In this document: positions 5,884 through 37,605 of the stretch, piece after piece
Layout of the letters: each line of letters begins with the position of its first letter
Numbering within the stretch: position 1 is the first letter of the stretch
Virus record (IMG/VR): IMGVR_UViG_3300048565_000032
DNA from: a virus
Reading direction: 5' to 3' (one strand)
DNA: 47,761 nucleotides
Position numbers and translations under genes: made by a program
Notes under the pieces: model-generated
The model's database searches: none
What the model saw: only the letters and a program-made list of their open reading frames with translations
Told to the model about the DNA's origin: nothing

Positions 5884-6174
5884 GTGCTCGACATGACAAA
5901 CCTTCGTTTCCTCCTCCTCCTATCTCTCCTCTTCGCCTCGCTGCCCGCGCAGACGCCCGTGATGAACGGTGTGACCGGCACTGGCACTGGCATCGTCGCG
6001 TCGCCGAACGTGTGCAACACGATCAGCGCGAGACATTGCAGTCCCCGAGGTGGTGTCACCCTGGACTCGTCTCAGGTGATGTGGGTGTGGTATGAGCAGA
6101 TTTTCGAGGTCGACGCGAACGGCAACGTGCACGCGTTCGGCATCGCCTACCGCCACGAACTCTACGTGATCTGA
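5884..6174 (+). CDS. Small secreted protein (signal peptide), unknown function
   Basis: N-terminal LRFLLLLSLLFASLPAQT hydrophobic leader. Pyrimidine-rich, visibly less GC-rich 5' end. An alternative ATG lies at 5893. Confidence 0.45.
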   Translation: MLDMTNLRFLLLLSLLFASLPAQTPVMNGVTGTGTGIVASPNVCNTISARHCSPRGGVTLDSSQVMWVWYEQIFEVDANGNVHAFGIAYRHELYVI

Positions 6175-6443
6175 TGACGACCACATGCCCGCGATGCGGC
6201 TCCGAGAGCCTGGAGGTCACGACGATGGGCGGGCTGCTCAAGGGCAGCAGGTTCGACGACGTGAACCGTGCGACGTGCTCGAAGTGCAAGCATCGCGGCA
6301 CGCTCGGCGACTGGGAGCGCCTCGCGCAGGCCAACGCGGAGATCGCGCGCCTGCACGAGGCGATCCTGTCGCCGCTTCTCCAAGTCACCGAAGAGGCGCT
6401 GCGCGACGCGGGGGTGACACCACCAAAGCCAAGGTGCCGATAG
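6174..6443 (+). CDS. Zinc-ribbon protein (CPRC...CSKC)
   Basis: Two CxxC pairs (CPRCGS and CSKCKH) followed by a helical tail. The start overlaps the previous stop. Confidence 0.5.
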   Translation: MTTTCPRCGSESLEVTTMGGLLKGSRFDDVNRATCSKCKHRGTLGDWERLAQANAEIARLHEAILSPLLQVTEEALRDAGVTPPKPRCR

Positions 6444-21253: not shown

Positions 21254-23311
21254 ATGCCCCGCATCCCTCTCCCCACCGTCGGCCGGCAAGTCACCCAGGG
21301 CCCTGGGTCGTCGGCTCCGACCGTCACGCCGTTCAACGACCAGTCCGGCCGTCAGGTCGCGCAGTTCGGCGCCGCGGTCCAGCAGGCCGGGCAAGGACTC
21401 TCCGAGGTCGGGACGCACCTGCAGAACCAGTTCGACGTTGCGGCAGCGAAGGAGGCGGACAACCTCGCAGCGGACGTGCTGCGCAGCGGCCTCGGCACCT
21501 ACCTGCAGACGCAGGGCAAGGCTGCAACCGGCGACGCCTACGACCAGACGTTCAAGGGGCTCCGGCAGAAGATCGACGCCATCGGCAAGAGCCTGAAGTC
21601 GCCCAATCAGGTCGCGATGTTCCGGCGGTCCGTCGACTCGCGCATGCAGGACGCGCTCTACAAGGCTGACGAGCACAAGGCCAAGCAAGTGCTCGTCTAC
21701 GCCATGGCGGAGACCGAGACGCAGGCCAACTCCGCTCTCCGCGATGCGGTCGCGTCCTACGGCACCGACGAATCCGATGTCCATCTCGGCACGATGAACC
21801 GCGCGATCGACGAGATCGCGGACATGCAGGGTTGGGGTGCCGACAGCGAGCAGCGAAAGGCGTTGCACCTGAAGGCGAGCACCGACTTCCACTCGCTGGT
21901 GATCGACAGTCTCGTCACTGACGGCAAGCTGACGCAGGCCGCGCAGCACCTGGAGCAGAACGCCGACGAGATCGATCCTGCGCGCCGCGCCGTGATCGAC
22001 AAGGTCGTGAAGAAGGCGACCGTCGCGGACAAGGCGCAGCGTCTACAGCGAGCGTTCTCCGCCGAGGGCCTGTCGACCATCGACAGCGTCCGCAAGATCA
22101 ACGAGATGTTCGACAACAAGCAGCTGACCGTCGAAGAGCAAGACGAAGCTGTGCGCCGTGTCGCCTACAACGCGGAGCTGCAGGGGTCGCTGCAGGCGCG
22201 TGCCAGTAACGAGCTGTTGGAGAATGCCAAGGCCCAGGTTCTCGGCGGGCAGGAGCTGACGCCGCAACAGAAAGAAGCACTCCGCTTGGCGCGAGTCCTC
22301 GACGACTTCAACGCGTGGTCCGGTCACGGTGGGCAGCACAAGACCAGCGACGCGGGACTGTTCACGATGCAGAAGCTGCAGGAAGACCCTACTGGGTTCG
22401 GCCGCTACAACTCGTGGGACGAGGTGTTCAAGGATCTCCGCGGCCAGCTCGACGACAGCCGTCTCGACACCGTGGCGTCGATGTGGCGGAAGTGGAGGGG
22501 CATCGACACGTCCGAGGACGCCCTCAAGATGGACCTCGACCTGCAGATCACGCGTGCGCTGAAGGACATGACGCTCCTCCCCGAGGTGATCGCGAAGGAC
22601 AAGTTCACGCCGGAGCAGACGGCGATGGTCGATCGGTTCACGGCGGCGGTGATCGACGACGTCAACTCCCACGTCACTGGGCGAAAGGCCGGCGCGAAGG
22701 ACGTCTACGACGCGATCACCCGGCAGAAGAGGAACTCCTTGAAGATCGGCGACGTGCCCACCCCGGTGAGCATCTCACCCAACGACGAACTGCAGGACGG
22801 CATCTGGTCGACGCCGTTCGGTGATGTCGCGGCGGAGAAGATCACGCCAGCGTTCCGCGCCAACGCCAAAGCGAGCTTGCTCGCGTCGGGCCGGCGCGAG
22901 GAAGACATCTACGACATCGACATCGCGACCGAGTTCGCCCGATACGCCACAGAACTCAACAAGCAGACCCAGGAGGTCAAGGCCGCCAACCTGAGCACCG
23001 GTGAGTCCCGTTTGCGGGCGTTCTACAAGGGGCGCATCAACACGATCCTCCAGCAGGTCGCCGTCGACCGTCAGGCATGGGCTGAGATGGAGTTGGCCAC
23101 TGAAGCGAACGTGCCCGCCGCCTACCCCGGCGCGATGCCGACCGCCGAGTCGCTGCACGTCGGCGTCCGCGACTACGTCATCGAGGCCTTCGGTGACGAG
23201 ATGGCGCACTTCGGGTTGAGCGTCGAGCAGATGCGGCGCATCCTCGACAAGGAAGGCAACTACGTGCCGAGGAAGCAGATGTCGACGATCGATCAGCGAG
23301 GGCCCTTCTGA
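21254..23311 (+). CDS. Putative internal virion/ejection protein (685 aa, helical)
   Basis: Start MPRIPLPTVGRQV at 21254. Long helical, charged protein between the nozzle and the giant protein. Confidence 0.4.
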   Translation: MPRIPLPTVGRQVTQGPGSSAPTVTPFNDQSGRQVAQFGAAVQQAGQGLSEVGTHLQNQFDVAAAKEADNLAADVLRSGLGTYLQTQGKAATGDAYDQTFKGLRQKIDAIGKSLKSPNQVAMFRRSVDSRMQDALYKADEHKAKQVLVYAMAETETQANSALRDAVASYGTDESDVHLGTMNRAIDEIADMQGWGADSEQRKALHLKASTDFHSLVIDSLVTDGKLTQAAQHLEQNADEIDPARRAVIDKVVKKATVADKAQRLQRAFSAEGLSTIDSVRKINEMFDNKQLTVEEQDEAVRRVAYNAELQGSLQARASNELLENAKAQVLGGQELTPQQKEALRLARVLDDFNAWSGHGGQHKTSDAGLFTMQKLQEDPTGFGRYNSWDEVFKDLRGQLDDSRLDTVASMWRKWRGIDTSEDALKMDLDLQITRALKDMTLLPEVIAKDKFTPEQTAMVDRFTAAVIDDVNSHVTGRKAGAKDVYDAITRQKRNSLKIGDVPTPVSISPNDELQDGIWSTPFGDVAAEKITPAFRANAKASLLASGRREEDIYDIDIATEFARYATELNKQTQEVKAANLSTGESRLRAFYKGRINTILQQVAVDRQAWAEMELATEANVPAAYPGAMPTAESLHVGVRDYVIEAFGDEMAHFGLSVEQMRRILDKEGNYVPRKQMSTIDQRGPF

Positions 23312-26300
23312 TGTCCGGGTTGTCTCTGCCACCGAACGCAACCACTCCGACCGCAGACCAGCTGACTGAGATCCGACGGCGGCAGGAGGCGGCCCAGGCC
23401 GCCGAGAAGGACCAGCGGATGATGGCGGTGTTCCGCCAAGCGGTGACCATCAACCCGGAGGCTCGCGCCGAGGCGGAGTCGATCTCGAAGAGGCTCGGGA
23501 AGCCCGTCGAAGCGCTCACCGACAACATCGACGTTGCGCGCGAGATGCTGAAGGTCCGCGAGCTGCAGGAGACACGGCGGCAATACCCGAACCTCGACAA
23601 GCGCCTCGACAACCTGGAGTTCACGAGCCTCGTCCACGACGACCTCGGCAACCTGAAGTTGACCGAAGACACGTTCGACTGGGTGAAGCGAAACTTCCGC
23701 ACCGGCAAGTTCATGAACGAGCGCGGCGAGATCGGCGCGCGCATGATGGCCGGGCTGTCCAACTCGGATGACACGCTGCGCCTCGAACAGCTGAAGCTGT
23801 TGACGCAAGACGCTGGGCAGGACACCGGGTTCGTGGCGTCCGCTCTGCAGCTCAGTGGCCAGATGATCGGCCCGATGGCGAAGTCCTTCGCCGCTTCCAC
23901 CGCCGCCGCCGGCGCCGTGTCCCTGTTCTCGGGCCCCGGTGCCACCGTGACCGGGCCGGCTGCCTTCACGACGACTATGCTGGCGTCTACCTTCGCCCAG
24001 ACTGCGGTGATCGAGGGCGGCAACGCTTTCCTCGACATGCGCGACAAGGGCTACGGCGAGGACGTGTCGATGTTCAGCGCCGCCTTCGTCGGCCTCGCCA
24101 ACGGCGCCCTGGAGACCGTCGGTCTCGGCATCGTCCTGAACCCGATCCGCAAGGCCGTGATCCGACGCACGGCCAACAAGCTCGGGCAGGCGCTCGCGCG
24201 GCCGACGACCAAGGAAGCCATCACCACGCTCGCCAAGGACTACTTCGCGAGCGTGTTCGGCGAGGCCGGGCAAGAAGGGGTTCAGGAGTTCGTCAACGTC
24301 ATCGGCGAGGCGTTCGCTCGCGACGCTACCGACCCGAACCTGCCGGCGCCGTCGTGGGGTGAGATCGGGGAGCGAGTCTCGGACGCCTTCATCACGACGG
24401 CCAAGGGCATGGCGCTGCTGGGCCTGCCCGCGCCGGCGATCCGCTTCCACATGGACACGCGCGCAGCTGCCGACGCAAAGGAGCACCAGAACTTCATGCT
24501 CGGGCTGAAGAAGGGCGCGGCAGAGTCGAAGCTCCGCCAGCGCAACCCGAGTGTCTACAAAGACTACCTCCGCAAGACGGCGGAAGGGTCGCCGGTCGAG
24601 AAGCTCTACTTGGACGGCAAGGTGTTCTCCGAGACGCTGCAGCAACTCGACAACGTCGAGGGGTCGGATGTCACCGGGCCTGTCGCCTCCCAGCAGCTGG
24701 AGGCCGCCATGCCCGGCATCCTCGAGCGCGTCGCCGAGGCCGCACGCACCAACAGCGACGTCACGATCGACACGGCGGAGTTCGCTGCGAAGCTGACCGA
24801 GACCGCGGTCGGCGACGCCCTCATGCCGCACACGCGCCCGAGCGAGAGCGCCCGCAGCTTTGCGGAGGTCGAGGCGCGCGCCGAAGACGTGAAGGCGATG
24901 AAGGCCGAGGCCGACGAACTGCTGCAGGAGAAGAGGACCACCGACAAGGAGTTCGTCGAATCGGCGGACCGTGTCGAGGAGAACCTCTACCAGCAGCTCA
25001 ACGCCACCGGTGTCTTGACGGAGAAGGCGATGTCGCGCGCCGTGGCTCAGCAGTATGTGAGCTTCGTCGTCGTGAACGCAGCGCAGCTGAAGATGACGCC
25101 GGAGGAGTTCTACAAGCGCTACCCCTACCGGGTGTTCGCGGCCGAGGCGCAACCGCGCGACAGCGCGGCGTTCGACCAGACCGGTGACCGCCGGACAGAC
25201 TCGCCGGAGTTCCGCAACTGGTTCGGCGACAGCAAGGTGGTCGACGAGAAGGGCCAGCCGCTCGTCGTCTACCACGGCACGGCATCGACGTTCGACACGT
25301 TCAGCAAACAGAAGGCGCAGGACAAAGAGGGGCGTCGGCTTGGAATGGGTTGGGGTGCGGGCAAGTTCTACTTCGCCAGTTCTGGCGAAGCGGCGAGCAG
25401 CGCAGCGCAGTTTGCGGAGATGACGGGTAGGGGCAAACAGCCGCAAGTGATGCCGGTCTACCTGTCGATGCGGAAGCCGATTGATGCAGGTAGCTACCTA
25501 GCGCGAGTGGCTGCGCGCGTCGCCAAAGGTGCCACGCGGGACGCCGCAATCGCGCAGACGGATCGCGAGGTCCGGAAGGAAGGTTACGACGGCATCGTTG
25601 ACCATGTGTCCGGCGGTATCGCAGTCTTCGACCCGACGCAGATCAAGTCCGTCAACAACCGCGGCACCTACGATCCCACCGACCCGAACGTCCTGAACCA
25701 GCTCGGCGACTCGCGCGTCAAGACACCGACGCCTGCGGTCCGCAAGCTGCTGAAGAGCCTCACGCCGGCCGAGCAGCGCAAGATCACCGACAAGACCGCA
25801 GCGAAGGTGATCGCGCAGCTGAAGAAGCTGCCGTCCGCGAAGGAGATGGCGGCCGTCGCTCAGGGTGGCGTCGCGAAGCGCGGGTGGTATCGCGAGAGCG
25901 CGGCGGCCCTCGAAGCTGTGTTCGGCGCGGACGCCCCGCGGTTCGCGATGCTCCTCGCCGCTCTCTCGCCGCAGACCAGCGTCGAGCAGAACCTCACCAA
26001 CGCTCTGAACGTCTGGAAGACCTGGATCGACGCCGGCCGCCCCACCGGCCGTGACGCGATCATCGACGTCATGGCCAGCAGCGTGCAGGGCAAGAGCCGT
26101 GAGAGCGTGCTCGAAGCGTGGATCCCGAACAGCGTCCGCGCCCTCACGACGGACAGTCCGAGCGGCTCCTTGCTGTCCGGACCGAAGGTGAACAGCTTCT
26201 TCCGCAACCTGATCGGTGACACCACCGAGGTCACGCTCGACGCGTGGATGGCCAACTACGCGCTCGTCGACCAAGCGATGTTCGGCGGGTCTCTGACGAA

Positions 26301-29300
26301 GAGCGACTCCGGCAAGGGAACAGGCTACTTGGCGTTCTCGGCGCGTGTGCGCGAGACCGCTGCGCTGCTGACCAAGGAGACCGGAAAGACGTGGACCCCG
26401 GCCGAGGTGCAGGAAACGATCTGGTCGTGGGCGAAGACGCTCTACGAGCTGCAGACCGGGGAGGCCTCTGCGACGCAGCTGCTCGCCGAGGGTAAGCTGA
26501 CCGATGAGCTGATCAACTCGACCCCGGACTTCAGCAATCTCTTCCACGAACCGAACTACGCAACGATCCTCAACGAGGCTGGCTATGGCGCGCAACTCGA
26601 AATCCTCCGTGGCACTCGCGGCTCTGCTGATGTCCAGCTTGGTCAAGAAGCCGGATCTGGCAGCGAAGCAGAAGCTACTGCTGGAGAAGCTCGCCGCCGA
26701 CTCCAGCTCCAAGCGGCCAAGCGCCTCGAACGACTCCGCGAACAACGAGCTACCGCCTCCGCCCTCCGCAACGGCTTCGAGCAGCTCGGGCTCACCGATG
26801 ACGAAAGCGGAGACGTCGGTGGAGGGGCGGCTGCGGGACAATCTCCTGTCTACGGAACCGCGCGCGAAGGAAGCACCCGCGTCCGAGCCGTCCACTACTC
26901 CAAGCAGCCCCGAACCTTCCTCAACGGAGCAGCCTACGGCACCGGGCTCAGCGGACAGGAACGCTCTCGCGTAGCGGGCGACCCGATCCTCGGGCAGCGC
27001 ATCTACTTCTACGTCGACGCGGGCACGGGGATCACACCCGAGATCGGTGTCGGAACGGTCGGCCACGAGGTCGTCCTCGAAAACGTCTACGACATCAACG
27101 AGGACCCGCTCGGCATCATCGCCGAGTGGAAGAAGCAGCGAGCCGAGACCGGTGCTACCCTGAACGACATGGAGCTGGCGATCCACACCGCCGGCTTCGA
27201 TGGCTACTTCGTCCCGGCCGTCGGCGCAGCCGTGCTCGTCGGGCCACAACACACGAACGTCTCAGTTCGACAGATCGGTGACACGAATGGACCGCAAACA
27301 GATCGAAGCAACCAAGCCCCGCAGGGAGCAGTTCCAGACCCGAGCGGAGTTCGAGGAGGCTCTGGGGTTCTGGATGAGTCGTTCCGGCAGAGCCCTGTCG
27401 ACGATGCCCCCCTCCGAGGACTCCCCCAAACCGTCCGACACGCCGGCGAAGACGTAGCGTTCGGCCCGTTCCGCACCGCGCGTGAAGCCGCGGCGCGATA
27501 CATGGAGAGGGCAGGGCTCGAATACAACCCGCCGCGCGACTACGTCCAAGTCGATCGTGCGCGTGCGACGCGCATCGCGCAGGCCTTCGAGGAGATGAAG
27601 CACGACCCGGGCAGCCCGGAAGTGCAAGCTGCCTACGACGCGATGATCGATGAGACCATCGCGCAGTGGCAGGTGATCAAGGAGACCGGGCTGCAGGTCG
27701 AGTTCATCGACGGGCCGGACCCCTACCAATCGCCTCGCGACGCGATCCTCGACGTCACGCAGAACAACCACCTCTATGTCTTCCCGACGACGTCTGGCTT
27801 CGGCGGCTCCGAGTCCGCCAACGTCGACATCTCCGGCAACCCGCTGTTGCGCGTCGTCGAGGGCGAGGAGATCAGCGGGCGCCCGGTGCAGGCGAACGAC
27901 ATCTTCCGCATCGTCCATGACTACTTCGGTCATGTGAAGGAGGGCGTCGGCTTCCGTGCTCGCGGTGAGGAGAACGCGTGGCAGCAGCACATGGCGATGT
28001 ATTCGCCGCTCGCGCGCAAGGCCGCGACGAGCGAGACGCGCGGCCAAAACAGCTGGGTCAACTTCGGACCGTTCGCTGAGTCCAACCAGACCGCCAACGG
28101 TGCCGACACGCAGTATGCACCGCAGAAGATCGGCCTGCTCCCCGACTGGGTTGTCGAGGAAGGCTACGCCGGCGACGCCCTCGCCGCCGGAGAGCGGAAG
28201 AAGCCGCAGGGAACCTTCTCGCCTCGGACGCTGACGGCGTTGTTCTACAAGAAGGCCAACATCTCGACCGTCCTGCACGAGACCGCGCACTACTACCTGA
28301 CTGTCTACGCCGACATGGCGGCGCGGCCCGACGCGACGCCTATGATGCGCGCGAACATGCAGACCCTGCTCGACTGGTTCGGGGTCAAAGACCTCGCGAC
28401 GTGGAACGCGCTGTCGATCGAGCAGCAGCGCAAGCACCACGAAGCGTTCGCCTACAACTACGAGGTCTACGCGTTCGAAGGCAAGGCGCCGAGCAAGGAG
28501 ATGAAGACGATCTTCGCACGCTTCGCCGAGTGGCTGCGCGTGTTCTACAAGGATCTGCTGGAGCGCAGGAACCGCGTCTACCGCCGCGAGTTCGGCACCG
28601 ACCTGCCGATGCTGACCAAGGAAGTGCGGCAGGTCATGGACCGCATGCTCGCGAGCGAGGAGGCCGTTGCGCTGACCTACGCGCAGCGCGACCTGCTGCC
28701 CGTGTTCCAGACGCAAGAGGAGTCCGGCTTCGACGACGCGAAGTGGGCAGCCTACCAAGCGATGTGGCAGGAAGAGCGCGACGAAGCGGTCGCCGAGGTC
28801 ACGCGCGCCAGCCTCCGCAACGTCCAGTGGCTGTCGGGCGCTGAAGGCAAGGTTGCCAAAGCGCTGCAGGCTCGGAACAAGGAAGAGCGCGCGAGGATCC
28901 GCCGCGAAGTCGTGCAAGAGGTGCAGAACAACCCGCGCGACCGCGCACGCCGGTGGCTGCGCAAGGGAGAGGTCGTCCAGCCGGACGGGACTGTCGACGT
29001 CGAGCCGAAAGGCACGCCGCACAAGCTCGACCGCGCCACGGTGGTGTCGATGCTACCGCCCGGCACCGATCTGAAGCCGCTGAGCGGGATGCTGAAGAAC
29101 GACGGCCTTCACCCCGACCACGTCGCGGAGGCGCTTGGAGGCGAGTTCAAGACGGGCCGCGCGCTGCTAGACGCCCTGATCGAGATGCGTCCGTTCGAGG
29201 ACATCGTCAACGACCGCACCGACCAGCGCATGCTGGCTGAGCACGCCGAACTGGTCGAGGGGACACCCGAGTGGCGGGACTTCGTCAACCGCGCCGTGAA

Positions 29301-32064
29301 CAGCGAAGCGAGGGCGCGGTTCGCCGCTGCCGAGCAGCGCGCTCTGCAGAAGGCGACCACCCCTGTCCGCGTCCTGCTCGACTCCGCTCGCGAGGCCGCA
29401 CGTCTCTCGTTGGAGCGGTCGAAGGTCGCCGACGTGGACCCGCGCAAGCTGACGGGCACCTTGGACTACATCACCCGCAACCTGCACGAGGCGCAGCGCA
29501 AGGGCGACACCGACTCGATGATCATCTGGAAGCGGAAGCAGCTGCTCTACCACATGCTGGTGGCGCAGGCATACGAGGCGAAGCAAGAGATCGCGTCGGC
29601 ACGCGACGAGTTCCGCAAGATGTTCCGTTCCGACAAGAAGCTGGCGAAGGAGCGCAACGTCGACCTCGTGCTGGCGGCGCGGTGGGTGCTGTCGAAGTTC
29701 GGCCTGACCAGCGAACTGCAGGCGAAGGCGTCCGAGACGGCTCTCGCCACCGCGCAGGAGAACGACCCCGAGCGGCTCGAAGACACGAAGCCTCTGATCG
29801 ATGCCGCAGTCGCCGGCGCGAAGCCTTTCGACCAGCTCACGCTGGCGGAGTTCCGCGACCTGCGCAACACGGTCCGCTACCTGTGGGCGCGCAGCAAGCG
29901 CGACATGGAGATCGAGGTCTCGGGGCGCAAGGTCAAGCGCTCCGCCGCGGTCGCCGAGATGCTCGTGGAGATGAAGAAGGTGCTCGGCGAAGCGCCGGTC
30001 GAGACGAGCCCGATCACTGACGAGGCTCGCAGGTCGAGCCGCTACGCCAGCACCTTCGCGAAGCTGACGCGCATCGAGCACTGGGCGCGCAAGATGGACG
30101 GTGGGACCACGGGCCCGGTGACGACCTACTTGTTCCGCCCGCTGCGCGAACGCTACGACTCCTACATGGTCGATCGCGAGCGCCTCGTGAAGCGCATCCA
30201 CGAAGGCCTGCAGAAGCTGACGTTCAGCGACGCGAAGATCGAAGCCACGGAGCTGATCGGCGCGCCGGTGCTCAACGGCACGAAGCAGCTGCTCGGGGCG
30301 GTCCAGCACGCAGGCAACAACTCGAACCTGCGCAAGCTGTTGCTCGGCTACGGGTGGACCGAGGATCTCGGCAAGGGTGAGTTCAACCGCTCGCGGTGGG
30401 ACAACTTCTTGACGCGCATGATGGCGGAAGGGCACCTGACCAAGGAGCACCTCGACTACCTGCAGATGGTCTGGACGCTCAACGAGAAGGAGCTGAAGCC
30501 GATCGCGCAGAAGGTCAACCGCGAAGTCTACGGTCTGTTCTTCGAACAGATCGAGGCGACGCCGTTCGAGACGCCGTGGGGCACCTACGCCGGCGGCTAC
30601 ATGCCGGCGAAGCCCGACCCGGACCACCCACGCAACAGCGACATCCGTCAGCGGGAAGCGCTCGACGGGATCCAGGCGATGGAGAGCGACTTCCGCAACT
30701 CGATGTCCGGCACGGCGCGCGGCTTCACGATCTCACGCAACCTCTCGACTCGTCCGCTCACTCTCGACATCCGGCTGCAGTCGCGCCACATCGACGAGGT
30801 GCTGCGCTTCGTGCACATGCAGCCTGCGCTGCGCGACGTGAAGGGACTGCTGAAGGACCGTGAGTTCGCCAGCTACTTGAACGGCGTCGACCCGACCGCG
30901 ATCAAGGACATGCTGATCCCGTGGCTCGAAGACGTCGCGCGCAACCAAGTCACGAAGCCCAGCTCGATGCCCGCGCTCGACAAGTTCTTCGGCTTCCTGC
31001 GCCGCAGCACCGGCTTGAACTTCATGTTCGCCTCGTTCCGCAACGCCGCGCAGCAGATCACCGGGCTCAGCAACGTCCTCGTCTACGTGAAGGGTCGCCA
31101 CGTCCGTGACGCGATGTGGCGCTACTACACCAGCGCGCCGAGCACGACGAACTGGGTGGTCGAGCGGTCGAAGTTCATGCAGTCGCGCCTGCGCGATCAG
31201 GTCGGGCAGCTGCACGACGACATCGACCTCCTGCTCGATCCGTCGTGGATGGGCAACCTGAAGCGCTGGACCAACAAGCACGGCTACTTCGCTCAGCGGT
31301 TCATGCAGAACCAAGTCGACGTCGTCGCGTGGCTTGCCTCCTACCAGCAGGAGATGGAGAAGTCCGGGGCCGACGTGAGTGACGCCGACGCCGTCGCCGC
31401 CGCGATCGCCGAGGCTGACGCTGTCGTGCGCCTGACGCAGGGCAGCGTCACCTCGATCGACACCGCTGCCTACGAGCGTTCCTCGGCCTTCGCCCGTCTC
31501 TTCACGCAGTTCAGCTCCTACTACAACACGGTCCTGAACCAGATCACGTCGGCACCGCCGGGGTCGAAGGCCCGCGCCTCGCTGCTCGGGCTGGTCATGC
31601 CGGCGTTCGGTGCGGCCGTCATCGCCGCGGTCGCCTCGGGCGGCGCGGAGTTCGACGACCGGGACGAGAACGGCACCATGGACGAATACCTGGAGTGGCT
31701 GTTCTCGACCCAGGCGCGCGCTGGGCTGGCCACAGTGCCCGGATTCGGCCCGCTCCTGGCGCAGGCCGCGTCGGGGGATAGCCGCGCTGGCGACCGCCTG
31801 ACGCCCGCGCCGGCGTGGTCCTCGCTGCAGGCGCTGGCCCGCTCGGTGTCGAACCTCGCCAGCGGCGACCCGCGAGGCGGCGGCCGGCAAATCTACGACG
31901 CGTTCACGGTGTTCGCGGTGGCCACCGGCATCCCGGTCGGGGGCCTGGGGCGGTCGATCGGCTACGCGGTCGACGTCGCGAGAGGCGACGTCGTGCCGCG
32001 CCACTTGGCGGATCGCATCCGCGGCACCCTGAGCGGCAACGCCGGCTTCGGCACGCGACGCTAG
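23311..32064 (+). CDS. Giant polyvalent virion protein (2,917 aa): N-terminal hydrophobic region, ART-like (H-Y-E) domain, HDxxGH domain, HExxH metallopeptidase motif, C-terminal TM segment
   Basis: Uninterrupted 8,754-nt ORF. FRNWFGDSKVVDEKGQPLVVYHGT...GKFYFASS...EGYDGIV lies at about 25200-25680. IFRIVHDYFGHVKEG lies at about 27900. HETAH is at 28276-28290. The TM-like segment LLGLVMPAFGAAVIAAVASGG lies near 31580. Confidence 0.7.
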   Translation: MSGLSLPPNATTPTADQLTEIRRRQEAAQAAEKDQRMMAVFRQAVTINPEARAEAESISKRLGKPVEALTDNIDVAREMLKVRELQETRRQYPNLDKRLDNLEFTSLVHDDLGNLKLTEDTFDWVKRNFRTGKFMNERGEIGARMMAGLSNSDDTLRLEQLKLLTQDAGQDTGFVASALQLSGQMIGPMAKSFAASTAAAGAVSLFSGPGATVTGPAAFTTTMLASTFAQTAVIEGGNAFLDMRDKGYGEDVSMFSAAFVGLANGALETVGLGIVLNPIRKAVIRRTANKLGQALARPTTKEAITTLAKDYFASVFGEAGQEGVQEFVNVIGEAFARDATDPNLPAPSWGEIGERVSDAFITTAKGMALLGLPAPAIRFHMDTRAAADAKEHQNFMLGLKKGAAESKLRQRNPSVYKDYLRKTAEGSPVEKLYLDGKVFSETLQQLDNVEGSDVTGPVASQQLEAAMPGILERVAEAARTNSDVTIDTAEFAAKLTETAVGDALMPHTRPSESARSFAEVEARAEDVKAMKAEADELLQEKRTTDKEFVESADRVEENLYQQLNATGVLTEKAMSRAVAQQYVSFVVVNAAQLKMTPEEFYKRYPYRVFAAEAQPRDSAAFDQTGDRRTDSPEFRNWFGDSKVVDEKGQPLVVYHGTASTFDTFSKQKAQDKEGRRLGMGWGAGKFYFASSGEAASSAAQFAEMTGRGKQPQVMPVYLSMRKPIDAGSYLARVAARVAKGATRDAAIAQTDREVRKEGYDGIVDHVSGGIAVFDPTQIKSVNNRGTYDPTDPNVLNQLGDSRVKTPTPAVRKLLKSLTPAEQRKITDKTAAKVIAQLKKLPSAKEMAAVAQGGVAKRGWYRESAAALEAVFGADAPRFAMLLAALSPQTSVEQNLTNALNVWKTWIDAGRPTGRDAIIDVMASSVQGKSRESVLEAWIPNSVRALTTDSPSGSLLSGPKVNSFFRNLIGDTTEVTLDAWMANYALVDQAMFGGSLTKSDSGKGTGYLAFSARVRETAALLTKETGKTWTPAEVQETIWSWAKTLYELQTGEASATQLLAEGKLTDELINSTPDFSNLFHEPNYATILNEAGYGAQLEILRGTRGSADVQLGQEAGSGSEAEATAGEARRRLQLQAAKRLERLREQRATASALRNGFEQLGLTDDESGDVGGGAAAGQSPVYGTAREGSTRVRAVHYSKQPRTFLNGAAYGTGLSGQERSRVAGDPILGQRIYFYVDAGTGITPEIGVGTVGHEVVLENVYDINEDPLGIIAEWKKQRAETGATLNDMELAIHTAGFDGYFVPAVGAAVLVGPQHTNVSVRQIGDTNGPQTDRSNQAPQGAVPDPSGVRGGSGVLDESFRQSPVDDAPLRGLPQTVRHAGEDVAFGPFRTAREAAARYMERAGLEYNPPRDYVQVDRARATRIAQAFEEMKHDPGSPEVQAAYDAMIDETIAQWQVIKETGLQVEFIDGPDPYQSPRDAILDVTQNNHLYVFPTTSGFGGSESANVDISGNPLLRVVEGEEISGRPVQANDIFRIVHDYFGHVKEGVGFRARGEENAWQQHMAMYSPLARKAATSETRGQNSWVNFGPFAESNQTANGADTQYAPQKIGLLPDWVVEEGYAGDALAAGERKKPQGTFSPRTLTALFYKKANISTVLHETAHYYLTVYADMAARPDATPMMRANMQTLLDWFGVKDLATWNALSIEQQRKHHEAFAYNYEVYAFEGKAPSKEMKTIFARFAEWLRVFYKDLLERRNRVYRREFGTDLPMLTKEVRQVMDRMLASEEAVALTYAQRDLLPVFQTQEESGFDDAKWAAYQAMWQEERDEAVAEVTRASLRNVQWLSGAEGKVAKALQARNKEERARIRREVVQEVQNNPRDRARRWLRKGEVVQPDGTVDVEPKGTPHKLDRATVVSMLPPGTDLKPLSGMLKNDGLHPDHVAEALGGEFKTGRALLDALIEMRPFEDIVNDRTDQRMLAEHAELVEGTPEWRDFVNRAVNSEARARFAAAEQRALQKATTPVRVLLDSAREAARLSLERSKVADVDPRKLTGTLDYITRNLHEAQRKGDTDSMIIWKRKQLLYHMLVAQAYEAKQEIASARDEFRKMFRSDKKLAKERNVDLVLAARWVLSKFGLTSELQAKASETALATAQENDPERLEDTKPLIDAAVAGAKPFDQLTLAEFRDLRNTVRYLWARSKRDMEIEVSGRKVKRSAAVAEMLVEMKKVLGEAPVETSPITDEARRSSRYASTFAKLTRIEHWARKMDGGTTGPVTTYLFRPLRERYDSYMVDRERLVKRIHEGLQKLTFSDAKIEATELIGAPVLNGTKQLLGAVQHAGNNSNLRKLLLGYGWTEDLGKGEFNRSRWDNFLTRMMAEGHLTKEHLDYLQMVWTLNEKELKPIAQKVNREVYGLFFEQIEATPFETPWGTYAGGYMPAKPDPDHPRNSDIRQREALDGIQAMESDFRNSMSGTARGFTISRNLSTRPLTLDIRLQSRHIDEVLRFVHMQPALRDVKGLLKDREFASYLNGVDPTAIKDMLIPWLEDVARNQVTKPSSMPALDKFFGFLRRSTGLNFMFASFRNAAQQITGLSNVLVYVKGRHVRDAMWRYYTSAPSTTNWVVERSKFMQSRLRDQVGQLHDDIDLLLDPSWMGNLKRWTNKHGYFAQRFMQNQVDVVAWLASYQQEMEKSGADVSDADAVAAAIAEADAVVRLTQGSVTSIDTAAYERSSAFARLFTQFSSYYNTVLNQITSAPPGSKARASLLGLVMPAFGAAVIAAVASGGAEFDDRDENGTMDEYLEWLFSTQARAGLATVPGFGPLLAQAASGDSRAGDRLTPAPAWSSLQALARSVSNLASGDPRGGGRQIYDAFTVFAVATGIPVGGLGRSIGYAVDVARGDVVPRHLADRIRGTLSGNAGFGTRR

Positions 32065-32067
32065 TAG

Positions 32068-32141
32068 TGGCAGGACGGGGTGGGGTCGAACCACCATCGC
32101 CCGATTTGGAGGCGGGCATTCTACCGTTGAACTACCGCCCC
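32068..32141 (-). tRNA. tRNA-Trp (anticodon CCA), CCA-3' encoded
   Basis: Hand fold of the reverse complement. Acceptor GGGGCGG/CCGTCCT (two G-U pairs), D arm GTTC-AACGGTA-GAAT, anticodon arm CCCGC-CTCCAAA-TCGGG (C-U at 31-39), variable CGAT, T arm GGTGG-TTCGACC-CCACC, then discriminator G and CCA. Confidence 0.8.
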
Positions 32142-32166
32142 CGAGAAAAGACTCCGCGGCTAGGGA

Positions 32167-32291
32167 TGTGACAGCAGGTGGCTTCGCCTCGGCCAGCGGC
32201 GCTTGCGCGCCGGCAGGATTCGAACCTGCGTATCTTTGCGGTGAAAGATGGAAGCCGTCACGGCATCCGCGGATTGACAACAGCTGTCACA
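32167..32291 (-). ncRNA. Candidate Y-like RNA (unit 4): 9-bp terminal stem enclosing a hairpin and tRNA-like module 3 (32179..32229)
   Basis: 5' TGTGACAGC (32291-32283) pairs perfectly with 3' GCTGTCACA (32175-32167). Inside: GCAGG-TTCGAAT-CCTGC, CGGCGC-GCAA-GCGCCG, C, TGGC-CGAGGCGAA-GCCA. Confidence 0.55.
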
Positions 32292-32373
32292 CACCGAATC
32301 CGGCGACGAGCCGTTGGTCGACCGGTGCGTGACAGCCGAAGAAGAGAGCCCGACAAGGGATCGTCACAGCTTT

Positions 32374-32427
32374 GCCCTACCGTTTGGGCTACGGGCCCGT
32401 GGTGGGCCTGCCGAGATTCGAACTTGG
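32374..32427 (-). ncRNA. Permuted tRNA-like module 2 (T arm, closed acceptor helix, D arm)
   Basis: CCAAG-TTCGAAT-CTCGG (one A-C mismatch), CAGGCCC-ACCAC-GGGCCCG, TA, GCCC-AAACGGTA-GGGC. Confidence 0.6.
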
Positions 32428-32494
32428 ATGCAAGCCGGGACAGCATTCGGGCAGTGAGAGTCGGCGACAAGGGATCGCAGCAGTCTTCTTTCTC

Positions 32495-32547
32495 GCTCTA
32501 CCGTTGAGCTACACCGGGCAGGGCCCGATGGCTGGACTCGAACCAGC
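32495..32547 (-). ncRNA. Permuted tRNA-like module 1 (T arm, closed acceptor helix, D arm)
   Basis: GCTGG-TTCGAGT-CCAGC, CATCGGG-CCCTG-CCCGGTG (7 bp including one G-U), TA, GCTC-AACGGTA-GAGC. Confidence 0.65.
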
Positions 32548-32787
32548 AACCTAGACCTTAGAGGGGATGTAGACCGCTACTGCATTCGCCGAAATGGTGC
32601 GCGGACAAGAGGTGTGACAGGTGTGTCTTGGCAAAGCATCGGGGAGCCCTGATCAAGGGGCCCGGTAGCCTCGTGGTGAAGATGAAGCCCGTCACGGCAT
32701 TCCGCGTCTGGGTGTGCGACAAGGGTCGGCCGGAGCGAGGTATCATGGCGAGATGAACGCCCCGGTCAGCATTCGCACGCCGGCACT

Positions 32788-34404
32788 CTAGCGCCCGAAC
32801 TCACGAATGCAAGAGGGCCAGTCCTTGTTCTGTAGCCAAGCGGCGACAGACGTGAACACCGCGTCCGAGAAGCCGGCGACGCGGAGAGTGTCCTTCCGCT
32901 TCGGCAGCTGGTCGGTGGCGTTCGGGCTGATGTTGATGCGGACCTGCTTCGCGTTCGGGTTCTTGCGCTTGATGTCGTCCCACGCGGCCACAGTGCCGGG
33001 CGCCCGGTCGCGGGTGTGGGTCGCGTAGTTGTAGGTGAAGCTCATGCCACTTGAGTCGAGCCAGCTCTCGTTGTCCGAGATCAGGATGAACGTGTCCACG
33101 TCGCGCTTCTCGCTCGCGAGCAGCCGCATCGGCGCCGAGCAGTCCGTGCCGCCGCCCGCGTTCGCCAGCTTCTGCGCCATCGTCGGGATGCTGTCGAGCG
33201 GGTTCAACGGGACAATGACCGCATTGTTCGCGAACGTCATCACGCGCGTCTGCGGCGAGCGCCGCACGATGGCCGCCGCGAACAGCGCCGCCACGTCCAT
33301 GTAGGTGATCTCGGTCGACGCGTTGCCGCGATACCCGGTCACCGGGTTCTTCATCGAACCGGAACAGTCGACCGCGACGTAGACGTTGCCTTCGAGCGCG
33401 GGCACCGCCGCGAGCGAGTGATCGAGCGCCTGCCCGAGTGCATACTTCAGCTCGTGCGGCATGTCGGCGTCCTTGGCGACCATCGAGAACGCCTGCAGCA
33501 GCTGGTAGGGGAACTGCTTCGCCTTCAGCACCTCCTCCTTCGAGGAGAGGCGCGCGACGATCTTCTTCAGCAGCTCGGGGTTGCTCTTGAAGACGCCGTG
33601 CCGCTGCGCGGTCACGAGGTTCATGCGCGTGAACTGGAAGCCGCCCCGATCGAACAGCTGCTCCCAGTGCGCCGTCGTCAGCGGGACGGTGTCGATCATG
33701 TTGAACGGCACGTCCGGCAGCGGCTTCGTCTGGTCGGCGCGGAACGCGAGCGTGTCCTGCACCAGCTGCGGCAAGGCCTCCGGGTTCTCGACCGGCTTGC
33801 CGATCAGCATCCGGTAGAGGGTGGCGCGCTCGCGGTCGAGGGTGAAGCCGAGCGTGTCCATGTCCTTCGACACCGGTCGCGGGCGTGCGAGCTTGATGAT
33901 GTCGCCGAGGCTCGGATCCTTGGCGATCGACTGCTTCCACAGGTAGTCGACGTTCGCGCGGTTCAGCCAGTTCGACACCAGCCGCTTGCCGACCGAGCCG
34001 AGCGAGCGGCGGCCGAAGCGACCGGAGCGCACCGCCTGCACGAAGTTCGAGAGCATCTTCGCGTTGTTGATCACCTCGTCGAACAGCGCCGCGGTGAACG
34101 CGCCGCTCTTCTTGCCGAAGAGGTAGGCCAGCAGAACCGCCGGCGTGTCCTTCATGAAGCCAGCGCCGCGCGCGTAGCGCGCGACCTGCGCGACGAACGC
34201 GTCGTCGCACTTCGCGGCCAGCTCCAGAATCTGCGCGAGCTGAGTCTCGGCCGAGACGTAGAACGTGTCGCCGAAGAAGCCGGTCACCGCCAGCTGCGCG
34301 AGAGCCTCCTCGGGCTCCATCGCGTAGGCCGGCGCGCCGGCGTTGTTGGTGGCGTCGGGGGCGACGTAGAGGGACGGGGAGGAAGCAAAGGTCTTCTTGT
34401 TCAT
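32788..34404 (-). CDS. rsr: Ro60/Rsr orthologue (TROVE domain + vWA domain with MIDAS motif)
   Basis: N-terminus TNNAGAPAYAMEPEEALAQLAVTGFFGDTFYVSAE...VARYARGAGFMKDTPAVLLAYL is TROVE-like. The C-terminal vWA domain has DCSGS (VAVDCSGSM), GGGTDCSAP and ILISDNESW. ATG 34404 is preferred (GGAG 9 nt upstream); an alternative ATG lies at 34446. Confidence 0.85.
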   Translation of the reverse strand: MNKKTFASSPSLYVAPDATNNAGAPAYAMEPEEALAQLAVTGFFGDTFYVSAETQLAQILELAAKCDDAFVAQVARYARGAGFMKDTPAVLLAYLFGKKSGAFTAALFDEVINNAKMLSNFVQAVRSGRFGRRSLGSVGKRLVSNWLNRANVDYLWKQSIAKDPSLGDIIKLARPRPVSKDMDTLGFTLDRERATLYRMLIGKPVENPEALPQLVQDTLAFRADQTKPLPDVPFNMIDTVPLTTAHWEQLFDRGGFQFTRMNLVTAQRHGVFKSNPELLKKIVARLSSKEEVLKAKQFPYQLLQAFSMVAKDADMPHELKYALGQALDHSLAAVPALEGNVYVAVDCSGSMKNPVTGYRGNASTEITYMDVAALFAAAIVRRSPQTRVMTFANNAVIVPLNPLDSIPTMAQKLANAGGGTDCSAPMRLLASEKRDVDTFILISDNESWLDSSGMSFTYNYATHTRDRAPGTVAAWDDIKRKNPNAKQVRINISPNATDQLPKRKDTLRVAGFSDAVFTSVAAWLQNKDWPSCIREFGR

Positions 34405-34452
34405 CTTCAGGGTCTCCAGTAGTCCCGCAGGTCTACTGGAGTTCACCCTTGA

Positions 34453-37400
34453 CTACAAGCCCGGCCTGTGCCGATCCCACATCGCGCCCTGCCATGGGTA
34501 GGCGCGCAGCTCCGTCTGCTCGGTCGCCATGTAGCGATCCATGTAGTCGAAGAACGCCGGCTGGTTCCAGAACGGGCGCAGACCCATCGCGCGCATGGCG
34601 AGCACGCACCCCGACCACGAGATGGCGGAGCAGCACCGCCGGTAGTCGTTCTCGCCTGGGTTCTTCACCCACCGGTGGTCGTCGCCTGCCGGCGACTGCG
34701 CGTGGAAGTTCCCCCACTCCGGCAGACCGACGTCGGCCGCGGTGTAGCCGCCGAAGCCCCAGTTGTAGACGCCCGGCGAGGTCTCCTGCACGTAGAACGT
34801 CTGCCCATCCTCGCTGAAGGGGATGACGTTGCGCGCGTCGCCGGGCGTGAAGATGGTCGGCGCGTAGGTGGTGCCGGCCGCCAGCATCGCGTCGTCGTGG
34901 AGCACGCGCCCAGCGAAGAGGATCGGAAACTTGCGCCCGTTGCAGTGGCCGTTGACACCCCACTTCGCCCCGAGCTTCATGTGCTCGAAGTTGTCGATCC
35001 CCATCTGCGTCAACGCGATCACGATCTTCCGCTTCTGTGCGTTGGTCAGGTTCGTGTTCGCGAGCAGCGCGGCGTCGCCGATCTGCCGAGTGAACCGCTG
35101 GTAGTAGTCGCCGAGCCCGGCCTGCGGGTGCATGTAGCGCGAGGTCCAGTTCGGGAAGTGATCGAGCCACAGCGTTGCGTAGAACCAAGCCTCTACCTCT
35201 GCGACGCTCGGCGCGCCGGCAGCCGGGGTGAGATCCGCGAGGAGCGCGTAGTCGAGGTCTTGCTCGCGGAAGCGCACGGTCTTGTCCGCGCCGGCGTAGG
35301 CGGGTCGGAACGCGTCGGCGCTCGGCGCCGCCGCCAGAACGGTCAACACCGCAGCCGTCTGCAGCGCGGACCACTGCCCGTTCGCCGGCGCGAAGGCCGG
35401 CGTCGTCGAGATCAGCGACCCGGTTGTGATCGTCAACGGCAGCTGCGCGCCGACGTTCATCGCCGGCGTCCACCGTGGCGCGTTGGTCTCGTCGCGCAGG
35501 AAGAAGTCGCCGGGGTTCACCGTCGAGATGTCGCTGTCGTAGAGCGACGAGTCGTAGCCTTGCTTGCCGTCGGCGCGCGGCGCCGGGCTGAGCATCGACC
35601 CTCCCGTGGTGCGGCCCGTCGGCTGGACCACGACGCCCGGCGTGATCGCCGCGATCGTGACCGGGCCGACCACCCACGGGTCACCGTTGCAGAAGCGTCC
35701 GGCCGGGCGCGGCTGCGCGAAGGTCCAGGTCACCCCGAACTGAGTCATCGACGACGCTGTCGGCGCCGGTGCCGCCACGACACCGGGGGCCAGCCACGCC
35801 GTTTCCTTGGTCTCGTTCGCTCCGCTGGTCAGCTGCGCCCACACCGCGCCCGCCTGTGGGTCGGCCGGGTCGTTGCGGAGCACCACCGCCGGCGCCAGAC
35901 CCATGCCGAAGTAGTTGAACACCTCGTCCGCGGGCGCCGTGCCGGCGACCGGGCGCTGCGGGCTCGACACCCAGCGCCCACTCTGCAGGAGCCACGCGTC
36001 GCGCATGACCGCCCTGGCGCCCTCCAGGGCGATGCTTCGAGCGAGGGGGATGTCGAGCACCCGTCCGGCCAGATCGAGGCCGTAGCACCCGACGCCCTGC
36101 TGCCAGGGGATCCACCACGCCCCCGCCCCGAGGCGCGGGTCATCGACCCTGACGTCCCAGATCGCGAGGGGGCGCGTCCCGAGCGCGGCGTAGACCAGAC
36201 GCACGCGGTCCTCGTAGCGCGCCCTGACGCGCGCAGCGAGCGCCCGGTCCTCCAGGTCGCGCCACAGGCCGACGACCAGGATCCCCGCCCAGCCGACGCT
36301 ACGGGCCGCGTCAGGGCCGCTGGTCGACCACCCAGGCCGCACGGTCTCGCCGAAGAGGAAGAGGCGGGCCTGCTGCTCCAGCTCCCACTGCAGGGCAGCG
36401 GAGTCGGTCAGGCGGGCAGCTGCGATGACGGTGTTGTAGAGCCAGTGCTCGCGATCGGGGCCCAGCCACCCGTGGGTGTCGGGCAAAACGCCCGTCTTGC
36501 CGAGGCGGTCTGGGGAGACCCCGAGGTTGAAGTGGGGGCGGCCGTTCCAGGTGACGCAGTTCGGGTGCGCGATCGGATCCGCGAAGGAGCCGTCCGCTTC
36601 GAGGTGGTGGCAGGGCCGGGCAAGCATCTTCAGCGCCGCGAAGTAGGCGACCTGCTCCGCCCCGACGCCGCCCGGCAACAGGCTTTCGCCGCGCACGAAG
36701 ACCTGATCCTCCTGCGCACCGGTGTCGCCGGCGGTCGGGTTCGCGCCGATCGTGCCGGCCTCCCAGGTGTGCAGCCGGCGGAGGGCTTCGGGCCACTGGC
36801 CCATCCAGGCGCGGACATCGAATCCGGGCGGGTAGCTCGGGTTGCCGTCCGGCAGCAAACGAGCAATGGCGACGGCGGTCGCCGCGCGCAGCCCGGCGGC
36901 GTTCACTTGGAACCACCCGGCCTCGTCGACATCGCCGAGGATCCGCCGCCACGCGAGCGTGACCGCGGCGCCGCGCGCCTGACCGTCCGCGAAGGCGGTC
37001 CCCGCCGGCACGATCGGACTGCCCCAGCCGGCGCCCAGGACGTGCACGTAGGCGTCGCCGAACCGGAACGTCAGGGCGTCGCTGGTCTCGCCCATGTCGG
37101 GGATCGAGCCGTTGCTGCAGCAGACCACTACCTCTCCGGTGGCCATGCCCGGCTGGTCAGGGAGCCACCGCAGCCACGCGTCGACGTTCAGCATCGGCGT
37201 GACACGCCCGCGCATGCGACAGCGCCAGCCGGCACCGTCGGGGGTGACGGACACCAAGCCGAGGGGCGCGCCGTTCACCGTCGCGAGGCCGCCGAAGAAC
37301 GCGACCGGGTCCGCCGGCAAGCTCAGCTCGGGCGCCGGCGACGGTGCCGCGTCGGCGAGGCGCAGGTCTCGCTCTTCGTGCGGCGCGAGCGTGACGTGAA

Positions 37401-37605
37401 CATCGAGCGCCCAGACGTCGAGCCCGATCTTGCGCCCGAGCACGAAGCGCTCACCCGTCGGCAGGGTGCCGGCGTCGTGCGTCGGGCGCGTGTCGGTGGT
37501 CGTCCGCAACCAGCCGGTGAAGGGGTGCGGCGCGTAGTTCGCGACGCGGACGGTCTGCGCGGTAGCCGCGCAGCTGAGGAGGAACGCAAGCAGTGTTCGG
37601 AGCAT
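34453..37605 (-). CDS. Large secreted (or lipo-) protein of unknown function (1,050 aa)
   Basis: Signal peptide MLRTLLAFLLSCAATAQT (ATA-Q cleavage site or an LLSC lipobox). Trp/Gly/Pro-rich globular composition, with Cys motifs GHCNGRKF and YRRCCSAISWSGC. I recognised no catalytic family. Confidence 0.7.
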   Translation of the reverse strand: MLRTLLAFLLSCAATAQTVRVANYAPHPFTGWLRTTTDTRPTHDAGTLPTGERFVLGRKIGLDVWALDVHVTLAPHEERDLRLADAAPSPAPELSLPADPVAFFGGLATVNGAPLGLVSVTPDGAGWRCRMRGRVTPMLNVDAWLRWLPDQPGMATGEVVVCCSNGSIPDMGETSDALTFRFGDAYVHVLGAGWGSPIVPAGTAFADGQARGAAVTLAWRRILGDVDEAGWFQVNAAGLRAATAVAIARLLPDGNPSYPPGFDVRAWMGQWPEALRRLHTWEAGTIGANPTAGDTGAQEDQVFVRGESLLPGGVGAEQVAYFAALKMLARPCHHLEADGSFADPIAHPNCVTWNGRPHFNLGVSPDRLGKTGVLPDTHGWLGPDREHWLYNTVIAAARLTDSAALQWELEQQARLFLFGETVRPGWSTSGPDAARSVGWAGILVVGLWRDLEDRALAARVRARYEDRVRLVYAALGTRPLAIWDVRVDDPRLGAGAWWIPWQQGVGCYGLDLAGRVLDIPLARSIALEGARAVMRDAWLLQSGRWVSSPQRPVAGTAPADEVFNYFGMGLAPAVVLRNDPADPQAGAVWAQLTSGANETKETAWLAPGVVAAPAPTASSMTQFGVTWTFAQPRPAGRFCNGDPWVVGPVTIAAITPGVVVQPTGRTTGGSMLSPAPRADGKQGYDSSLYDSDISTVNPGDFFLRDETNAPRWTPAMNVGAQLPLTITTGSLISTTPAFAPANGQWSALQTAAVLTVLAAAPSADAFRPAYAGADKTVRFREQDLDYALLADLTPAAGAPSVAEVEAWFYATLWLDHFPNWTSRYMHPQAGLGDYYQRFTRQIGDAALLANTNLTNAQKRKIVIALTQMGIDNFEHMKLGAKWGVNGHCNGRKFPILFAGRVLHDDAMLAAGTTYAPTIFTPGDARNVIPFSEDGQTFYVQETSPGVYNWGFGGYTAADVGLPEWGNFHAQSPAGDDHRWVKNPGENDYRRCCSAISWSGCVLAMRAMGLRPFWNQPAFFDYMDRYMATEQTELRAYPWQGAMWDRHRPGL

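Follow-up and report, generated by a model that had tools for sequence, protein, structure and literature searches.

An rsr-adjacent array of probable Y RNAs, three of them with YrlA-type tRNA-like domains, in a podovirus-like genome

The 47,761-nt virus record IMGVR_UViG_3300048565_000032 from IMG/VR (referred to here, at its full length, as the window) carries on its minus strand rsr, a Ro60 ortholog gene, followed by a 646-nt gap and a gene for tRNA-Trp. We found that this gap is most likely an rsr-Y RNA cassette of five noncoding RNAs lying back to back on the minus strand, two without and three with a tRNA-like domain; the first of the five starts 10 nt past the rsr stop codon. Matches to the YrlA and YrlB families, a shared closure motif and covariation together lead to this reading. 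An initial annotation, made from the letters alone, had proposed three minus-strand modules here, each composed of a T arm, a closed acceptor helix and a D arm, and their coordinates and sequences proved correct to the base. The range that it gave contains the modules and is too narrow, as the full Y RNAs are 105-130 nt long and two more lie at 32714-32778 and 32600-32706; it had likewise overlooked the Rsr-binding stems and the two Y RNAs that lack a tRNA domain. The cassette reveals no new kind of element. It belongs to the known YrlA-type family, and what is new is the BPP-1-like podovirus genome that hosts it and the presence of three conserved paralog types in a phage clade.

Y RNA 1 (32714..32778, 65 nt; all units are on the minus strand) is YrlB-like and lacks a tRNA domain, with a closing stem GUGCGA/UCGCAC and an AUGC / CCCUUG loop. 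Y RNA 2 (32600..32706, 107 nt), also without a tRNA domain, is closed by CGCGGA/UCCGCG and has a stem 2 formed by GUGACAGG and CCUGUCAC. Module 1, running from GCTGG at 32547 to GAGC at 32495, is contained in Y RNA 3 (YrlA type I; 32462..32591, 130 nt); module 2, from CCAAG at 32427 to GGGC at 32374, in Y RNA 4 (YrlA type II; 32348..32452, 105 nt); and module 3, from GCAGG at 32229 to GCCA at 32179, in Y RNA 5 (YrlA type III; 32154..32272, 119 nt). The units are separated by 7, 8 and 9 nt and then, between Y RNAs 4 and 5, by 75 nt, and tRNA-Trp lies 12 nt past Y RNA 5. A T arm with a UUCRANY loop, a closed acceptor helix and a D arm with GG were seen in all three modules, each of which is enclosed by a second helix and a terminal helix of 6-7 bp. 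Y RNA 3 has an acceptor helix of 7-8 bp, a UA linker, a canonical D arm and the variable-loop sequence AGGUU, while Y RNA 4 has no variable arm and a 7-bp acceptor helix with one A.C mismatch. In Y RNA 5 the variable arm is a 6-bp hairpin, and the acceptor helix, also of 6 bp, is capped by a GCAA tetraloop. This unit departs from YrlA in its atypical D arm, with C at position 14, and in its linker of 1 nt rather than UA.

The three YrlA-type units match the Rfam YrlA model (RF02553) end to end, which was the covariance-model search that the initial annotation had proposed. In a local scan, the RNA containing module 1 scored 50.3 bits (32458-32592, E 4.3e-10), that containing module 2 scored 42.2 bits (32344-32453, E 9.4e-8) and that containing module 3 scored 30.8 bits (32150-32273, E 1.9e-4). 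We also built a covariance model, R1, from eight sequences of one paralog type (the RNA of module 1 and seven orthologs). R1 gave 52-120 bits on the three YrlA-type RNAs of the window, with 55.4 bits for Y RNA 5 (E 3.6e-12) and 52.0 bits for Y RNA 4 (E about 1e-11 for the pair). The YrlB model (RF02565) aligned over the full length of Y RNA 1 (32710-32781), a weak match with 23.2 bits against a cut-off of 97 and E 0.064. Both tRNA-domain-free units fold to the stem-loop-stem shape of Y RNAs. The minimum free energy (MFE) fold of Y RNA 2 has Y-RNA architecture (-39.6 kcal/mol, z -2.3), R1 matches it with 27.5 bits (E 8.8e-5), and it is found by the closure scan described below. YrlA has been described as a [quoted passage not shown] (10.1101/312249; PMC4201824), and the modules agree with this description point by point, which supports the assignment. 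Together with the RF02553 matches and the identity of rsr, it bears out the earlier proposal of a YrlA-class tRNA-like domain encoded beside rsr on the same strand.

Between the two helices that enclose each module lies an asymmetric internal loop with (A/G)AUGC on the 5′ side and CYCU(U/A)G on the 3′ side. A loose scan for closure stems gave a background of about nine matches per shuffled window, and the scan was therefore tightened to a 6-bp stem, ATGC, 45-190 nt, C[CT]CT[TA]G and the complementary strand. Across the window this strict version returned five matches, every one of them in this gap and on the minus strand, compared with a mean of 0.12 in shuffled windows. The Rsr-binding motif of bacterial Y RNAs has been published as GNCGAAN0-1G on the 5′ strand (PMC4201824), and the asymmetric loop is its counterpart. 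Y RNA 3 has GGCGAAUG, an exact fit to the published motif; the other four units have GCGAAUG, CCGAAUG, GCGGAAUG and GCGGAUG, and the altered bases lie inside a covarying stem. The T-loop word by itself occurs 10 times in the window versus 6.4 expected, which is no enrichment, and the signal resides in the composite structure. Thermodynamic folding of module 1 in isolation gave exactly the three proposed hairpins, with 88% of the ensemble, and in module 2 the acceptor and D hairpins form and the T stem has an A.C mismatch.

Orthologs of Y RNA 3 (n = 8) were aligned by MAFFT, without fitting to any model, and passed to RNAalifold, which recovered helices of 5 bp (T stem), 7 bp (acceptor) and 4 bp (D stem) besides the closing stem and stem 2, with compensatory changes in 16 of 28 pairs. 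The corresponding alignment of type II recovered most helices, with covariation in the acceptor helix, that of type III gave the closing stem and the V, T and D helices, and that of the short unit represented by Y RNA 1 gave a conserved closing stem and stem 2. When 23 clade sequences were placed on R1, 92.7% of cells were in standard pairs, versus 38-47% when partners were slid by 1-3 columns, both sides changed in 26 of 28 pairs, and none of 500 shuffles reached the observed values; compensatory changes occurred in all seven pairs of the closing stem, although an alignment fitted to a covariance model is biased towards the structure of that model. The helices, those of the T, acceptor and D arms included, covary strongly. 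A rule-based parse of 95 YrlA-like RNAs, made without any alignment, showed the Levitt pair 15-48 (the second D-loop base and the base before the T stem) as G-C in 55, A-U in 31 and something else in nine. The UA linker was present in 80 of the 95, A at position 14 in 92 and GG in the D loop in 94. Because the Levitt pair covaries and the elbow nucleotides are conserved, these RNAs very probably adopt the L-shaped, tRNA-like fold of the Salmonella YrlA crystal structure (PDB 6CU1; Wang et al., 2018, 10.1101/312249).

The neighboring gene is rsr (32788..34446, minus strand), whose longest open reading frame (ORF) encodes 552 aa. Judging by the catalogued product, which has 538 aa, translation probably starts near 34404. 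The ORF matches Pfam vWA_Ro60 (2.9e-16) and TROVE (6.2e-7) as well as PHROG 850, an RNA-binding protein. Its matches in the PDB are Deinococcus radiodurans Rsr (2NVO, E 2.2e-18), the Ro60 of phage phiLo (9KOP/9L5Y, 7e-11) and vertebrate RO60, and the record P0001, labelled 60 kDa SS-A/Ro, is 100% identical to the rsr product. By these matches we regard the 552-aa ORF as a genuine Ro60/Rsr ortholog. The placement of the modules next to rsr and on its strand was correctly described, as the RNAs occupy 32154-32778 on the minus strand and the whole lies within about 4 kb.

The array recurs in related phages. Rsr relatives encoded on phage-like contigs, with 46-62% identity, all have an uncalled gap of 450-790 nt after rsr, left empty by gene callers, and in eight of eight close relatives whose contig continues past the array we found 3-5 units directly after rsr, with a short unit first. 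These units fall into four orthology groups, namely short, I, II and III. Short-unit orthologs are the first unit after rsr in eight relatives, and that of L006 shares 85% identity with Y RNA 1; type II orthologs were found in L009, L010, L008 and L012, and type III orthologs in L003_3, L006_4 and L009_4. The IMG/VR locus L001, with an Rsr 48% identical, gave no match to Rfam YrlA and only two short units by R1. A megablast search of the locus against 50,697 phage records returned no match. A clade of uncultured phages thus keeps a whole cassette of rsr, a short Y RNA, up to three YrlA paralogs and often tRNAs, and a small podovirus whose portal relates it to BPP-1 joins the phages with a complete Ro60-Y RNA system.

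The initial annotation took three such modules in tandem to be an undescribed arrangement, and this does not hold. Among the rsr loci retrieved, 85 from metagenomes and viruses had at least one full-length match; the copy number was one in 36 of these loci, two in 31, three in 16, and four and five in a single locus each (five in the viral contig L108), so that 18 of the 85 have at least three. Arrays of 3-6 are also present in the genomes of cultured Pseudomonas, Ectopseudomonas, Hahella, Lysobacter, Dyella, Labrys and Inquilinus. YrlAs beside phage rsr genes were published in 2014, when Chen et al. reported 355 YrlA-like RNAs adjacent to rsr, from 254 bacteria and 22 phages, listing all copies within 4 kb (PMC4201824). 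The phages of that study include mycobacteriophages such as ET08, whereas the window is a BPP-1-like podovirus. Five cultured phage records were checked for YrlA (Neville, Cashline, Mx1, Starbow and Myrna). Gordonia phages Neville (L177, 2250-2366, 44 bits) and Cashline (L176, 2784-2880, 42 bits) each have one unannotated YrlA-like RNA upstream of the Ro-like gene, and no Rfam YrlA was found near the Ro-like genes of Mx1, Starbow and Myrna at E <= 0.1. Since the match in Neville lies under a small annotated coding sequence, gp090 (2232-2369), the latter is probably not a gene.

Bacterial arrays with this layout include those of Pseudomonas sp. JDS08PS003 (L186, 4075-4640), Ectopseudomonas alcaliphila JCM 10630 and Hahella sp. 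NBU794 (L235, 4130-5296, six copies), in which short Y RNAs come after rsr and precede 3-6 tandem YrlAs of about 132, 109 and 120 nt, close to the 130, 105 and 119 nt of the window. In JDS08PS003 the order is a short Y RNA, a short Y RNA with a T arm, and then YrlAs of 132, 109 and 120 nt. These arrays differ from that of the window in being chromosomal, in encoding an Rsr 41-47% identical and in having mostly GCAA tetraloops as acceptor loops. More generally, the window shares with the YrlAs of Salmonella Typhimurium, Mycobacterium smegmatis and more than 250 bacteria and phages the adjacency to rsr on the same strand, the terminal stem with a CGAAUG-type Rsr-binding loop, the order of T arm, closed acceptor, UA linker and D arm, and the elbow nucleotides with the Levitt pair. 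The 7-bp acceptor helix is as in M. smegmatis YrlA, whereas the variable-arm hairpin of types I and III contrasts with the 4-nt variable loop of Salmonella YrlA. Y RNA 1 resembles YrlB in its closing stem, its AUGC loop and its position in the same block as the YrlAs, but it has no T arm, which M. smegmatis YrlB does have.

Other phages offer partial parallels. Thermus phage phiLo, like the window, encodes a Ro60 beside several Y-like RNAs, and its Ro60 binds two phage Yrls and forms, with a Yrl and the PNPase of the host, a ternary complex in vitro (PMC12135203). phiLo Yrl1 and Yrl2, however, lie upstream of the gene and have a stem-bulge-stem with a CGAA motif and no reported tRNA domain, while the RNAs of the window lie downstream. 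For Listeria phage CKA15, a Y RNA identity has been proposed for three abundant, unassigned RNAs encoded close to its Rsr-like gene (mSystems 2025, PMC12282133). The order of T arm, closed acceptor and D arm, with ends in the anticodon stem, is also that of the circularly permuted tRNA genes of Cyanidioschyzon and some archaea. Those, however, pass through a circular intermediate to become real tRNAs with anticodon loops, whereas the RNAs described here have no anticodon loop, and their stem carries a Ro-binding motif.

Some of our observations count against the assignment of the gap to Y RNAs. None of the three YrlA-type units reaches the RF02553 gathering cut-off of 69 bits, and their single-sequence z-scores are modest (-2.3, -1.0 and -2.4). 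The proposed fold of module 3 is 1.7 kcal/mol above the MFE, module 2 has an A.C mismatch in both its T and its acceptor stem, and the bias of the model-fitted alignment mentioned above applies here as well. In addition, no gene for PNPase, RNA ligase/RNA repair or CCA addition was found among the roughly half of the window ORFs that were scanned. Scores below the cut-off are also seen in most copies of bacterial arrays whose best copy passes (L186, for example, has 75.7, 69.7 and 56.8 bits), which indicates that the Rfam cut-off misses divergent paralogs rather than excluding them. In each of the seven bacterial arrays at least one copy is above the gathering score, two each in Pseudomonas and Ectopseudomonas; because only some copies pass, automated annotation undercounts bacterial YrlAs.

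We considered whether the modules are decayed, functionless remnants or junctions of tandem tRNA genes, with the T arm of one joined to the D arm of the next. A real tRNA-Trp adjoins the array, Chen et al. caution about this class of false positive (PMC4201824), and one R1 match, in the relative L009 (6189-6241, 32 bits), is a genuine junction between two adjacent tRNAs. That match is an instance of the known false-positive class and also illustrates the proposal that YrlA descends from tandem tRNAs. The modules, however, have neither anticodon arms nor second halves beside them, and each sits inside a covarying terminal stem with an Rsr-binding loop. The three paralog types are kept across phages whose Rsr is 46-62% identical, and the units of relatives show no neutral decay, which makes this explanation extremely improbable. 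A canonical tRNA or tRNA-tRNA junction was also rejected as a class for the modules themselves, which have no anticodon arm or open acceptor ends: ARAGORN found a single tRNA in the region, tRNA-Trp, Rfam at gathering thresholds gave tRNA-Trp alone in the window, and across the modules the Rfam tRNA model reached only 19-20 bits with inserts of 59-125 nt. The structures might instead act in cis, as 3′ untranslated elements of the rsr mRNA that serve as stabilizers, processing punctuation or terminators, rather than in trans. They do lie directly downstream of rsr on its strand with no promoter detected, tRNA-like structures can be punctuation for RNase P or RNase Z, and a very stable hairpin lies inside the array. 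Punctuation would not explain the AUGC/CUUG loop, the 15-48 covariation or the conservation of the elbow, the minus strand has no terminator-like site there, and the same RNAs are found upstream of rsr elsewhere (L176 and L177, and M. smegmatis, PMC4201824); we therefore consider a purely cis-acting role very unlikely.

Another alternative concerns the acceptor end. The acceptor loop of Y RNA 4, ACCAC (32401-32405, minus strand), follows a 7-bp helix and reads as an encoded discriminator plus CCA. Such an encoded N-CCA after a 7-bp helix occurs at 17 further loci (for example L003 5894-6032, L009 5676-5781, L170 900-1025 and L033 4662-4780), and CCA is the commonest triplet at that offset. Of 111 YrlA-like RNAs whose 7-bp helix could be parsed, 18 have NCCA precisely at positions 73-76, versus 2.35 expected (binomial P about 3e-11, with no correction for relatedness). 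This enrichment may be a relic of descent from tandem tRNAs, or a sign that RNase P opens the loop to expose a CCA end. Types I and II at least could then be processed into CCA-ended split tRNA mimics, RNase P opening the loop and the 5′ half being trimmed to NCCA, and the resulting two-piece RNA would engage synthetases, EF-Tu or the ribosome, or soak up acceptor-end toxins, with Rsr as a mere chaperone. The YrlA of M. smegmatis is indeed cleaved by RNase P and receives CCA in vivo, and aminoacylation was raised by the authors of that study, which also covers Rsr binding and modification by TruB and DusA in YrlA RNAs (PMC4201824). On the other hand, most family members have no NCCA, many helices are of 6 bp or much longer, the helix of module 2 has its A.C mismatch, and the encoded CCA is perhaps only that relic. 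Identity elements for many synthetases are also missing, because there is no anticodon loop, and we judge this alternative quite unlikely. The 15-48 covariation and the NCCA enrichment after 7-bp helices may nonetheless be of use to Y-RNA specialists as family-wide side results, and the NCCA and paralog observations are the only leads here that go beyond the literature consulted.

Across the Y RNA family, the Ro60 ring is bound by the stem. The distal module controls access to the Ro60 cavity and links the protein to a partner, which is PNPase in D. radiodurans and Salmonella. If the gap is a Y RNA cassette, each RNA is predicted to bind the ring of the phage Rsr through its stem. The distal part of three of them corresponds to a tRNA permuted at the anticodon loop, with stem 2 in the position of the anticodon stem, followed by the variable loop or arm, the T arm, the closed acceptor, the U8-A9 linker and the D arm. 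This module may act as a tether or gate coupling Rsr to a host partner, which could be PNPase, by analogy with RYPER, or enzymes that bind the tRNA elbow. The five RNAs would then offer several alternative adaptors for the phage Rsr, and the phage could redirect the decay or quality control of structured RNA during infection. Conservation of three paralog types across phages suggests distinct roles, and possibly three different partners or substrates. The tether and decoy roles raised by the initial annotation remain conjectural; a decoy for anticodon nucleases in particular is unlikely, since there is no anticodon loop. The cassette supports the idea that phages use Ro60 ribonucleoproteins to manipulate host RNA metabolism and provides compact candidates for experiments.

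As to expression, the five RNAs and the tRNA would share a transcript with rsr, forming the 3′ end of a leftward replication-gene operon, and then be cut apart. A search of the minus strand in the array yielded neither a sigma-70-like promoter nor a terminator, which fits co-transcription with rsr; the YrlA and YrlB of M. smegmatis likewise are processed from a single precursor (PMC4201824). Y RNAs 3 and 4 have 7-bp acceptor helices of tRNA length, and by analogy with M. smegmatis YrlA they are probably opened by RNase P, after which Y RNA 4 would end in the encoded ACCA once one nucleotide had been removed. It is conceivable, though unlikely, that a YrlA subset including Y RNA 4, opened in this way, becomes an Rsr-held two-piece tRNA mimic with a CCA end that is aminoacylated or serves as a substrate or decoy for acceptor-end enzymes or toxins, the three paralog types then being distinct adaptors.

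A few features of the array stand beside these results. Y RNA 4 is separated from Y RNA 5 by a 75-nt spacer (32273..32347, minus strand) that folds into a hairpin of about 19 bp (-38.1 kcal/mol, z -4.5), and none of 200 shuffles was as stable. It reuses the CUGUCAC/GUGACAG words of the adjacent stem 2 helices, and no counterpart was found in relatives. It could be a processing site, a stabilizer or a decayed unit. A YWCAUC motif, paired at the base of the variable arm or unpaired, stands right after stem 2 in every Y RNA of this phage clade, at 32565-32570, 32426-32431, 32246-32251, 32680-32685 and 32750-32755 (minus strand) in the window and in all units of L003-L013. It replaces the CUAC of the Rfam YrlA consensus, and bacterial arrays have ACUACA in its place. 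In L010, a module of T arm, acceptor and D arm (2862-2918, 34 bits) lies inside the array, and no closing stem could be detected around it. In the window, small ORFs that overlap the Y RNAs were rejected as coding on their G+C content at third codon positions, which is 0.55-0.73 versus 0.80-0.97 in real genes (the genome has 66.7% G+C).

The tRNA-Trp (anticodon CCA; 32068..32141, minus strand) was called by ARAGORN and scores 55.5 bits with the Rfam tRNA model. In the syntenic relative L009 the array is followed by tRNA-His, tRNA-Trp and an ARAGORN tRNA with anticodon UUA, a possible ochre suppressor (6063-6293). The window is a podovirus-like genome with a T7-type portal, 58-60% identical to those of Bordetella phage BPP-1 and its relatives, and with a GP7 capsid protein, tail tubular proteins and terminase. 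Its leftward block encodes PolA, an Enc34-type single-stranded DNA-binding protein and DUF2800, and it ends with the array and tRNA-Trp, which is convergent with a giant gene whose stop lies 3 nt away. That gene (23311-32064, plus strand) is a 2917-aa ORF with LPD22, ART-PolyVal (ADP-ribosyltransferase) and DUF7178 domains, kept in L006 and L010, and by its domains is a predicted polyvalent virion protein. Directly upstream of rsr lies a 1050-aa ORF (34453-37605, minus strand) that matches PHROG 34846 and has no Pfam match. Homologs of its N-terminal 600 aa occur in L009 and, downstream of the array, in L006; since the homolog sits elsewhere in relatives, this ORF is a gene of the clade rather than a fixed partner of rsr.

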